Notes under the pieces: generated by a model
Seen by the model: only the letters and a program-made list of their open reading frames with translations
What the model was told of the DNA's origin: nothing
The model's database searches: none
Part shown: positions 1-49,199 of the stretch, in pieces
How the letters are laid out: every line of letters begins with the position of its first letter
How positions within the stretch are numbered: the stretch's first letter is position 1
Assembly (NCBI GenBank): GCA_965200965.1
Contig: OZ241744.1
Coordinates: 3,264,001 to 3,328,000 of the forward strand
DNA length: 64,000 nucleotides
Reading direction: 5' to 3'
DNA from: an uncultured Candidatus Binatia bacterium
GTDB lineage: Bacteria; Desulfobacterota; Binatia; Bin18
Position numbers and translations under genes: made by a program

Positions 1-568
1 GATACTCCGGCTCGCCCAGGTGGGTACTCACCCAGCGCGACAGCACAAACAGCAGGTCGCTCAGCCGGTTGAGGTATTTCAACGGCCAGGGACTGAGGGT
101 TTCTTCCCGTGACAGCCGGACAAGGTCGCGCTCCGCCCGCCGACAGACGGTCCGTGCCTGGTGCAGAAAGCCGCCGACTTTTCCGCCGCCGGGCAGGACA
201 AAAGAGTTCAGCGGTTCCAGGTCTTTCTGGAGCCGGTCAATCGTCCGCTCCAAAGCCCTGACTTCCCGTGAGCCGGCCCGAAACATGCCCTGGTAGGAAA
301 AATCCGGCGGGGTGGCCAGCTCGCTGCCCAGGTCAAAGAGTTGGTTTTGCAGCCGGCGGAAAATCTGCTCCAGGGCTTTGGACGCTCTGAGGCTGTCTTT
401 GAGTTCGTCGTTAAAGACCCGAGCCAGTCCAATGACGGCGTTCAGTTCATCAACTGTACCGTAGGCTTCAACCCGGGCGGCGTCTTTGGCGACTTTCTGA
501 CCGCCGACCAGCCTAGTGAAGCCGGTGTCGCCGCTGCGGGTGTAGACCTTGGTAATGCGAATCGCCAT
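1..568 (-). CDS. ATP:cob(I)alamin adenosyltransferase, PduO type (3' end runs off the window)
   Basis: Not in the ORF track. Manual translation from ATG 568 gives MAIRITKVYTRSGDTGFTRLVGGQKVAKD...AYGTVDELN and YLNRLSDLLF motifs. The start overlaps the pckG stop (TAATG). Confidence 0.92.
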   Translation of the reverse strand, partial: MAIRITKVYTRSGDTGFTRLVGGQKVAKDAARVEAYGTVDELNAVIGLARVFNDELKDSLRASKALEQIFRRLQNQLFDLGSELATPPDFSYQGMFRAGSREVRALERTIDRLQKDLEPLNSFVLPGGGKVGGFLHQARTVCRRAERDLVRLSREETLSPWPLKYLNRLSDLLFVLSRWVSTHLGEPEY

Positions 569-29600: not shown

Positions 29601-30376
29601 AACCTCCTGCTCACCACCCCCGTCAGGCCGACCTCATCCGAGCCGTTCGACACCGGACGCCGGCCCGCATCCTGATCGGCAGGGCCGGGCCCGCCTATCG
29701 GACCCATACCCAGCTCGCTCTGCGCCGGGATCATGCCGCGGCTCTTGATGCAGTCCAGGCCGAGCTTGAGCTTGAGCGAGACTTCGCTCCCGAACTGGTC
29801 AAGGGCTGGGGCTTGTTTATGGTGACGACCCGGGCCGAGACCAAGGCCGACTACCTGCTGCGGCCAGACCTGGGACGGCGTTTGAGTCCCCACGCTCGGC
29901 AACGCATCCAGGAGCGATGTCCACGCCGGGCTGACCTCCAGCTCGCCATTGGCGACGGTTTATCGGTGGCCGCGGTCAAAGCCCAGGTGCCGACGCTGCT
30001 TGATGAGCTGGCCCGGGGCGCGCAGCAGCAGGGCTGGCGCTTTGGTCAGCCGTTTGTGATTCGCCACTGCCGGGTGGGGGTGCTGAACGATATCGGGGAG
30101 ATTCTTGAGCCGAGTGTGGTGGTGTTATTGATTGGTGAGCGGCCCGGGCTGGCCACCGCCCGGAGTCTGTCGGCGTATATGGCCTATCAGCCACGCGCCG
30201 GCCATACCGACGCGGAGCGGAATCTCGTCTCGAATATCCACCACCGGGGCGTGACGCCCATCGCCGCGGCCGGACGCATTCTTGGGCTGGCGGAACGTTT
30301 GCGCCGCGCCCGGCACAGCGGGGTCAGTGTCAAGGAGCAGATCGCTGAACACCCGCACACGGGCCTGACAGGCTGA
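29597..30376 (+). CDS. eutC: Ethanolamine ammonia-lyase small subunit
   Basis: TPARI..GRAG, YLLRPDLGRRL, DGLS, LIGERPGL, DAERN.VSNIH. Confidence 0.95.
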   Translation: MKPPAHHPRQADLIRAVRHRTPARILIGRAGPAYRTHTQLALRRDHAAALDAVQAELELERDFAPELVKGWGLFMVTTRAETKADYLLRPDLGRRLSPHARQRIQERCPRRADLQLAIGDGLSVAAVKAQVPTLLDELARGAQQQGWRFGQPFVIRHCRVGVLNDIGEILEPSVVVLLIGERPGLATARSLSAYMAYQPRAGHTDAERNLVSNIHHRGVTPIAAAGRILGLAERLRRARHSGVSVKEQIAEHPHTGLTG

Positions 30377-30412
30377 GGCCGAAGAGGGTGTCTGGACGAG
30401 AAAGGGGGAGCG

Positions 30413-30748
30413 GTGGAAGACACGCGCCAGGCTCAGCAGGAATCACAGCCGGCCCAGGAGTTGCCGTTGTGTCCCATCTGCAACCTGTACGCCGCCCAAC
30501 TGCGCCGCGGCAAGCTTCAATGCAGAAACTGCGGGTTTATTGAATCGTGACATGACTGTTCGTCCTCTGGCAGAGGACAGGCCGAGTGGATTCGGGCCTA
30601 TAGCGCCGAAGGCTTTGAGGCGCATGTGGAGCAACAGTTGGGGCTGCTTGACCGTCTCGCCGCGGCTGTACAGCGGCCGAGCGCGAACGGCTGGTCAAAC
30701 ATTTACGAATACCTGTTCCGGGAGCAGGCCTATCGCCAGGAGCAGTGA
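30413..30748 (+). CDS. Candidate selenoprotein: small zinc-ribbon protein with UxxC (TGA at 30548-30550)
   Basis: Purine-rich RBS (30401-30410) then GTG. CPIC-x13-CRNCGFIES-[TGA]-HDC, then 65 sense codons to the stop at 30746. SECIS-like hairpin follows the TGA. Confidence 0.72.
30562..30578 (+). promoter_or_regulatory. Putative bacterial SECIS hairpin
   Basis: GTCCTCT-GGC-AGAGGAC perfect 7-bp stem beginning 11 nt after the TGA; loop GG at +19. Confidence 0.7.
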
Positions 30749-30850
30749 CCGGTCTAGGAGCAGTGATGAACTTTGGGACAATTGCGGCCAGAGCGATGGC
30801 CGTGGCCGAGCGAGCAGCGACTCCGTGGTGCCGAGGTCCCGGCCACCTTG

Positions 30851-31354
30851 TTATGTGCGTTGACCGAGGTAGCGCCGCAGGACATACAGCCCGTCGGGCG
30901 TATACGGCTCGGTCTGGGCATGGCGCAGGGTGTCGTGTGGCGTCAGCAGGATGACGCTTTCGATCTCTTCTACCTGGAGGCGCAGCGCTCCGTCGTAGAC
31001 GCAGGTGAAGGCACCGCCCCAGACATGATTGTGCTCGTCCTCAAAGGAGAACTCAAACAGCTTGGTCAGCGGCACGTCCCGAATGCCCAACTCCTCTTCC
31101 AGTTCGCGGACCGCCCCCTGTTCGTAGCTTTCGCCAGCCAGCACCACGCCGCCCGTAGCCAGGTCGTACCAGCCCGGAAAGACATCTTTGGTCATCGTCC
31201 GCTTCTGGACATGGAGTTGCCCCTGAGAGTTGAACACCAGGATATAGGTGCTGCGGTGCGGCAGACGCTTGGCCCGCATTTCACTGCGCGGGGCCGTGCC
31301 AACCAGCCTGTTGCGCTCATCCACAATGCCAACGATTTCGTCTGCGACGGTCAT
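30851..31354 (-). CDS. NUDIX hydrolase (YfcD/IDI-like)
   Basis: HRSTYILVFN, QKR...KD.FPG.YD..TGG, GESY..GA.RELEEELGI Nudix box. Confidence 0.88.
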   Translation of the reverse strand: MTVADEIVGIVDERNRLVGTAPRSEMRAKRLPHRSTYILVFNSQGQLHVQKRTMTKDVFPGWYDLATGGVVLAGESYEQGAVRELEEELGIRDVPLTKLFEFSFEDEHNHVWGGAFTCVYDGALRLQVEEIESVILLTPHDTLRHAQTEPYTPDGLYVLRRYLGQRT

Positions 31355-48686: not shown

Positions 48687-49199
48687 ATGCACATACGACG
48701 ATTTCATCTGCTGATTGGCACACTCGTCTGGCTAGCGCTGAGCAGCCAGGCCTGGGCCAAGGCCGAGGTCGGCAGCCCGGCTCCAGATTTCTGTTTGCCG
48801 TCAAGCAAGGATGCCCAGGTCTGCCTCAGAGACTTTCGGGGCGCGCACAATGTCGTCCTGCTGTTTTATGTCCTTGACTTCACCTCGGGTTGAACCCTGC
48901 AACTGTCCTCCGGTCAGGGGGTCCAGAAAAAGCTGAACGCAAAAGTCCTCGGCATCAGCACCAATCATGGTGCCTCACAACAGGTCTTTACCCAACAGTT
49001 GAAACTCGATTACCCGCTGTTGAGCGCCTTTGAAGCGCCCGAGGTGATTCGGGACTATACCGGCTGGCTGGACGAGGAAAAACGGCTCGGCAATCGCGCC
49101 TATGTCATTATCGACAAACAGGGTATTGTCCGCTTTAAGCAGGTCGGCACAATGGTGCCGGTAGAAGACCTTGAGCAGGTCCTGGCCGGACTTGAATAA
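48687..49199 (+). CDS. Selenocysteine-containing peroxiredoxin (AhpC/TSA family) with signal peptide
   Basis: The two track ORFs 48570-48893 and 48999-49199 share a frame. VG.PAPDF.L...LFY..DFTSG-[TGA 48891]-T...VLGIS...LDYPLLS...RAY.IIDKQG. The TGA is at the peroxidatic TxxC position. Confidence 0.88.
48903..48926 (+). promoter_or_regulatory. Putative bacterial SECIS hairpin
   Basis: CTG-T-CCTCC-GGTCA-GGGGG-TC-CAG; loop GG at +19 from the TGA. Confidence 0.6.

Follow-up and report, generated by a model that had tools for sequence, protein, structure and literature searches.

Predicted SECIS hairpins of a small zinc-ribbon gene and a peroxiredoxin gene in a Candidatus Binatia genome likely share a general geometry and not a lineage-specific sequence code

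The model of the bacterial SECIS element (bSECIS) set out in the accessible part of PMC13188914 has four constraints: an apical loop of 3-9 nt on an upper stem of 4-16 bp, a G in loop positions 1-2, a UGA-to-loop distance of 16-37 nt and a minimum free energy of at most -7.5 kcal/mol. In the consensus drawn there (Fig. 2A) the hairpin lies just past the UGA, with the loop G first and 18 nt between UGA and loop, and the same text calls a position inside the coding region typical. The SECIS of Escherichia coli fdhF has a stem starting at +12 and GG at +19/+20. Elements lying beyond the stop codon are described, in the part of bioRxiv 10.1101/2022.07.06.499078 at hand, for SaoC and KCU-star (DUF466), whose selenocysteine (Sec) is found at or near the C-terminus; that of SaoC has a 7-bp stem and a GGU loop. 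Among Sec-containing families, the TxxU peroxiredoxins (PF00578) are listed in Table 1 of PMC13188914, which, in the portion available, also links the UxxC motif to redox function. A further family, the dual CXXC motif small (seleno)protein NF041197 (OS_HP3, hypothetical protein DW), has members about 50 residues long that contain one Sec and two CxxC motifs; it carries the name CxxC_Se_CxxC and has the motifs RxU/GxU.

We analyzed a window of 64,000 nt (G000:C1:3264001-3328000) from the genome of an uncultured Candidatus Binatia bacterium (3.62 Mb, 61.5% GC). Several of the sequencing runs containing window DNA are labelled sponge metagenome, and there is no RNA run among those listed. An earlier note on this DNA had drawn attention to two in-frame TGA codons, at 30548 and 48891, each followed after 11 nt by the letters GTCCTCYGG, and had proposed that these letters represent a lineage-specific SECIS consensus supporting both recoding calls. 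The coordinates, the two 11-nt spacers and the start of the motif at +12 were all verified, and GG is present at +19/+20 after both TGAs. The hairpin following TGA 30548 (30562..30578, + strand; +12 to +28) has a 7-bp stem and a GGC loop, whereas the upper stem following TGA 48891 (48907..48921, + strand; +14 to +28) has 5 bp and a GGTCA loop and lies within the coding region. The pairing registers thus differ, +12..18 pairing with +22..28 in the former and +14..18 with +24..28 in the latter, and 19 orthologues of the second gene are 92.6% paired in their own register versus 45.1% in the other. Over a 24-nt stretch the first hairpin folds with -10.1 kcal/mol (z -2.24) and the second with -8.2 kcal/mol (z -0.74), the latter being on its own no better than shuffles. 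Both sites satisfy all four bSECIS constraints as worded in the accessible part of PMC13188914, with loop 3 and stem 7 at 30548 and loop 5 and stem 5 at 48891; GG opens the loop at both, and the UGA-to-loop distance is 18 nt at both, as in the published consensus. The stem of E. coli fdhF is unrelated in sequence to either hairpin, but its stem start matches that of the 30548 hairpin and its GG falls at the same place. The position of the loop G that the two window sites have in common is the general bacterial one.

The genome encodes tRNA-Sec, selA, selB and selD, the last with one in-frame TGA, and selB was found in 38 of 41 genomes searched. It is to be noted that selA adjoins the tRNA-Sec gene on the opposite strand and that selB and selD neighbor each other some 37 kb ahead of the window; the coordinates given for selA/tRNA-Sec and selB/selD are G000:C1:1720603-1722075 and 3224694-3227602, respectively. 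Family searches, a coding-potential scan (142 candidate TGAs) and NCBIfam models yielded 14 selenogenes, picked by family and not by hairpin; 29 TGAs were inspected and only family-supported ones were counted. The set comprises selD, four genes of the AhpC/TSA fold, three UGSC genes (G000:C1 +2190127, -666533 and -2802149), two PrdB-like genes (+3480320 and -981188), a sulfurtransferase (-1854855), a SelW-like (+900029) and a CYCXC gene (-1227393) and the gene at 30548. Such a selenoproteome is rich for a genome of 3.6 Mb in which the formate dehydrogenase-like subunit carries Cys; that subunit reads RLCHA, and none of the five molybdopterin matches in the genome contains an in-frame stop. A BCP-type peroxiredoxin gene (G000:C1:1301688-1302050, + strand; L114) with an active-site TGA at +1301808 and a hairpin was left out because a TAG follows 10 codons later, and is likely a decaying selenogene. 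A further candidate at -1957956, a stop between SoxY-like and SoxZ-like parts, was rejected and remained uncounted.

If GTCCTCYGG were a consensus recognized by a specialized SelB of this lineage, or, in a weaker form, if TCYTCYGG were preferred wherever codons allow, the motif should recur among these genes. Within the genome it follows 2 of the 14 selenoprotein TGAs and is missing from selD as well as from 11 other selenogenes of known families; the best matches of these 12 reach 4-7 of 9 letters at shifts of -3 to +5, and five selenogenes have GCAGT at the SECIS loop. The element of selD has a different stem and its loop GG at +18, and the presence of TCCGG one base earlier counts in favor of a shared code. 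So does the 8/9 identity between two unrelated genes, for which we calculated P ~6e-4 per pair under a null of independent columns and ~0.05 over the 91 pairs that 14 selenogenes form; this is a mild coincidence. The exact nine letters are kept in 7 of 19 peroxiredoxin orthologues and in 1 of 20 loci of the gene family at 30548, and the weaker core TCYTCYGG in 13 of 19 and in 18 of 20, respectively, the latter being free of coding constraint; pure chance explains less well this persistence in both families. On the other side, the two hairpins pair differently (a 3-nt loop on 7 bp versus a 5-nt loop on 5 bp) and compensating stem changes, described below, indicate that pairing and not sequence is what has been kept. 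A lineage-wide code of either form is therefore improbable in our view.

In the whole genome TGA-N11-GTCCTCYGG occurs three times against 0.97 expected in 3.62 Mb, and at other spacers (3-24 nt) there are 0-4 matches per spacer. The third occurrence is antisense, inside a 343-codon ORF of the + strand, and was discarded as a false positive, so that the motif, suggested earlier as a probe, detected no further selenoprotein. It does avoid true stops, being found after 0 of 1442 TGA, 0 of 868 TAG and 0 of 466 TAA codons predicted as such. What the two sites have in common is a hairpin from about +12 with a loop G[G/T] at +18 to +20. Of the 14 selenogene TGAs, 12 precede a hairpin whose loop G[G/T] falls at +17 to +23, a count that is in-sample since the thresholds were tuned after the sequences had been seen, and the same hairpin follows 79 of 1442 TGA, 70 of 868 TAG and 25 of 466 TAA codons predicted to be true stops. 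A tighter C-N-G-[G/T] probe, derived from the same selenogenes, passes 47 of 6889 candidate TGAs, including 10 of the 14 selenogenes and a CoA-transferase gene discussed below; it also passes 28 of 3387 TAG and 11 of 2093 TAA codons, and given these similar rates its hits need support from homology. Six of the hits lie at ~1693300-1698700 (- strand, G000:C1) and have an identical 9-bp hairpin and repeated flanks suggestive of a CRISPR array.

We thus consider it highly probable, judging from sequence comparisons, that both TGAs are Sec codons served by ordinary, independently evolved SECIS elements and that the one at 30548 belongs to a small zinc-ribbon selenoprotein; the shared nine letters likely reflect a common geometry plus some chance, with no lineage code. 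In other words, the recoding calls of the earlier note stand, in that each TGA very likely encodes Sec and is served by a SECIS hairpin; the sequence consensus offered in their support does not. The match is a textbook one that introduces no new recoding rule and leaves the understanding of Sec insertion unchanged.

The gene at 48687..49199 (+ strand, 170 codons) encodes an AhpC/TSA peroxiredoxin. Its Pfam AhpC-TSA match (E 3.5e-22; 79.1 bits against a cut-off of 26, residues 29-151) spans the in-frame TGA at 48891..48893 (+), which encodes the predicted Sec of the peroxidatic site (F-T-S-G-U, TxxU) and falls in the alignment column of the F-T-G-I-C Cys of peroxiredoxins with solved structures. 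Each of 19 matches among 41 genomes has one in-frame TGA. The product is a TxxU peroxiredoxin, a known family: like the listed Sec peroxiredoxin of PF00578 it gives an above-cut-off Pfam match and has U at the peroxidatic Cys column. It differs in that Val replaces the Pro of the full PxxxTxxU motif (Y-V-L-D-F-T-S-G-U), which weakens the subfamily assignment and leaves the fold and the Sec call unaffected, and in a hydrophobic N-terminus that looks signal-peptide-like by eye. Additionally, it falls below every NCBIfam equivalog cut-off. By analogy with its family, the Sec would act as the peroxidatic residue.

The gene at TGA 30548 (30413..30559, + strand; ancestral extent 49 codons) encodes CPIC-x13-CRNC-GFIES-U-H-D-C, with the TGA at 30548..30550 (+) as predicted Sec46, the U of a C-terminal UxxC. 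A purine-rich, Shine-Dalgarno-like run is recognizable from sequence at 30402..30410 (+), and relatives have a similar G/A-rich run before a GTG or ATG located 40-58 codons upstream of the TGA. The family follows the pattern CPxC-x13-CxNC-GF[IV]ES-TGA-H-D-C-(R)-stop; its true stop position (30560..30562, +) reads TCG here, the stop having been lost. Comparisons were made over 20 distinct loci, after removal of duplicates and of the copies in G004, G662 and G018, which are decayed or divergent. All 20 have TGA at the Sec position, and in the other 19 the next stop lies 3-4 codons further on and is TAG in 14, TGA in three and TAA in two; TGA ends only 1623 of the 3107 predicted genes of the genome. 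Within the class, the gene was found in 13 of 48 genomes of one family (f1), and 19 further families yielded none, so that it appears confined to a single family of Ca. Binatia, where its genes sit in varied neighborhoods.

The hairpin starts with the third base of the true stop, at +12, or at +15 where the tail has an extra codon, in which case the UGA-to-loop distance is 21 nt; because it shifts by 3 nt with this codon, it tracks the stop as well as the TGA. The stop codon precedes it in 19 of the 20 loci, i.e. the SECIS is untranslated there, in contrast to the coding-region position called typical in the accessible part of PMC13188914, and 6-7 of its 7 pairs are kept in 19 of 20. In an alignment of 11 sequences, 97.4% of hairpin cells are paired, three of the seven pairs are compensatory and 13 cells have changed on both sides. 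None of 500 shuffles reached this paired share or the covariation score and slid controls were lower, whereas 307 of 500 reached the count of three compensatory pairs; it is to be noted that related sequences can beat this shuffle control without any structure. The decayed copy of G004 has TGG in place of the TGA and has lost the hairpin. Rfam gave no match at 30200-30900.

These observations also allow us to weigh whether TGA 30548 is a real stop that ends a 45-residue four-Cys ribbon, with the hairpin acting as a 3' stabilizer or terminator. Gene callers do end 52 of 52 database homologues, all unnamed or loosely named, at G[FY][IV][ED]S, immediately ahead of the TGA; the ribbon has all four of its Cys even without the tail, and one locus (L052, identical to L127) has kept TGA-H-D-C-R-TAA with the hairpin absent. 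A true stop would, however, change into TAA or TAG over time, as has happened at the next stop, and the H-D-C codons are kept with synonymous changes, differing mostly at third positions (CAT/CAC, GAC/GAT, TGT/TGC). Furthermore, no T-run accompanies the hairpin, which terminator prediction does not pick up, and Cys replaces the TGA in two distant, weak counterparts (P0011 and L041), albeit both singletons of which neither ends in CxxC. Taken together, we find a real stop very improbable and retain a Sec codon as the preferred reading. The counterpart at L041:52-1593 (G076) is a 513-aa ORF, CCA-adding-enzyme-like by eye, that ends in CxxC...CGNCGFKES-C-C-Y; it is a fusion, or else a small gene became attached to it through the loss of a stop. 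Searches for Cys homologues returned seven weak matches in 400 genomes of the same phylum, one of them a Cys counterpart, and a single, spurious match in 201 genomes of another phylum; with the L041 piece as query there were no candidate homologues, and no family of Cys counterparts was found. Among the metagenome matches L070-L084, the five that were examined look PriA-like, plus one unrelated stretch.

A third explanation of the shared letters is descent, in which recombination with a peroxiredoxin selenogene would have given the zinc-ribbon gene both its TGA and its SECIS. The TCYTCYGG core found in both families agrees with such an exchange, but the two 11-nt spacers do not resemble each other, the 3' strands are different, the registers are off by two bases and the basal peroxiredoxin orthologues L099 and L101-L103 are without the core, all of which makes a common origin extremely improbable and independent evolution the reading that we keep.

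In the ancestral gene, following the established mechanism, Sec-tRNA would be delivered by SelB docked on the GG loop, some 19 nt downstream of the UGA; the ribosome would read the UGA as Sec, add 3-4 residues and terminate at the next stop codon, whose final base also opens the hairpin, an arrangement that would place the SECIS in the 3' UTR. The product of about 49 residues would comprise a zinc ribbon, its four Cys predicted to hold one metal ion, followed by a free C-terminal U-H-D-C. The predicted structure is a two-strand beta-hairpin ribbon (mean pLDDT 75). The four-Cys ribbons of eL43/L37Ae, TFS and UPF0148 resemble it weakly in profile (eL43, E 0.004) and in fold, the likeness in every case leaving out the ES-U-H-D-C tail. 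Fold searches were non-significant (Foldseek E at least 1.5; best Z 3.3, rmsd 3.9, 40 residues aligned) and say nothing on function. Among possible functions we put first, at about even odds, a redox switch in which U46 and C49 would alternate between selenol/thiol and selenenyl-sulfide on a small metal-stabilized scaffold; a second metal-binding or metal-exchange site comes next, as possible but rather doubtful.

The copy in this genome has undergone remodeling. A 3' remnant of tenA (thiaminase II; 30581..30757, + strand), recognized by blastn against four congeners and by weak TenA matches, stands behind the SECIS as the result of a 494-nt deletion that starts two bases past the hairpin; in the four congeners tenA follows the small gene, and congeners retain it at full length in a run that begins with eutB-eutC. 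With the stop reading TCG, the frame enters the remnant and ends at TGA 30746-30748. The deletion junction lies inside four of four contigs from three studies, and the true-stop site reads TCG in three of these contigs and TTG in one; an assembly error as the cause of the lost stop and the deletion was rejected, all four contigs carrying both, although X2 may be the source sample. The 112-residue read-through protein was rejected as a real product: it has no homologue of 61-196 residues, and its halves match two separate genes in relatives. The predicted product of this genome would thus carry a 62-residue junk tail, and the copy may be under relaxed selection. This bears on the protein-level parallel noted earlier, S-S-G-[R/Q]-G at U+5 to U+9. 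The residues are indeed encoded in both frames, but at 30548 in this lineage only; since S-S-G-R-G is translated there only via a recent accident, the parallel is meaningless.

Compatible with a real zinc-ribbon family, the copy of this genome may already be a pseudogene, which we regard as quite possible. The lost stop and the fused tenA remnant point that way, as do a tail with two frameshifts in the related strain X11 (which has TTG at the stop site), the decayed copies of G004 and G662, and the failure to find the gene in the congeners G002 and G007 or in any of 26 genomes of genus g8. Conversely, the invariant residues, the start site and the 7-of-7 hairpin are all intact, and the first-Cys codon change in X11 is synonymous. 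The locus in any case presents a selenogene that is losing its stop codon with the SECIS retained.

The 30548 gene likely encodes an uncatalogued zinc-ribbon selenoprotein of about 49 residues, as far as sequence comparisons can tell. NCBIfam returned no family for the 49-aa protein and, for 17 members, seven weak families of non-selenoproteins (best E 0.0013), NF041197 not among them. Searched reciprocally, the NF041197 model picked up seven weak matches across the genome (E <= 10), and the 30548 gene was not one of them. The two resemble each other in length, in two CxxC motifs and in a single Sec; they differ in the position of U, which at 30548 follows both CxxC and belongs to a terminal UxxC. 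SaoC and KCU-star, as presented in the accessible text, share with the zinc-ribbon family a terminal or near-terminal Sec and a SECIS beyond the stop, but end in Cys-Sec and not in UxxC after a zinc ribbon, and have no NCBIfam sequence match with the 30548 protein. No row of the 119-family table in the available part of PMC13188914 fits this protein by domain and motif, and the word "zinc" is absent from the accessible passages of deep-Sep (PMC12013277) and BSepDB, although the supplements of both could bear on novelty. Among the papers searched, none combines selenoproteins with Binatia and none contains the CPxCG motif.

The family would have stayed hidden since its proteins end 3-4 residues after the UGA and the SECIS is in the 3' UTR. 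Indeed, deep-Sep, in the part of section 9 of PMC12013277 at hand, states as a limit that it relies on similarity beyond the TGA and on plentiful Cys homologues; a Sec three residues from the end escapes such searches, and tiny selenogenes are thus probably under-counted. Being free of coding constraint, the SECIS of the family, conserved as R-TCYTC-Y-GGN-R-GARGA-Y, would reveal the optimum for the SelB of this lineage where no codons interfere, and, if so, the peroxiredoxin SECIS approaches that optimum within its codons. A non-coding bacterial SECIS with natural compensatory changes also offers a clean substrate for studying SelB recognition apart from codons. We lean slightly toward the broader proposal that ribbons of 45-60 residues with a C-terminal U-x-x-C found an uncatalogued family, that their SECIS represents the SelB optimum and that the CoA-transferase passed by the tighter probe stands for a second family.

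This CoA-transferase alpha subunit (G000:C1:3381965, - strand; L113, L134-L148) is encoded about 54 kb beyond the window. It is glutaconate CoA-transferase-like (PDB E 4e-32) and is absent from the accessible part of the PMC13188914 table; no paper on such a family was found by title. One in-frame TGA is present in 17 of 17 matches, within the motif D-[ST]-T-U-G, and a hairpin with a GG loop at +24 follows in 15 of 15 loci examined. The conserved TGA makes it a candidate for a second new selenoprotein family, of which the copy in this genome is broken by an upstream TGA and frame changes.
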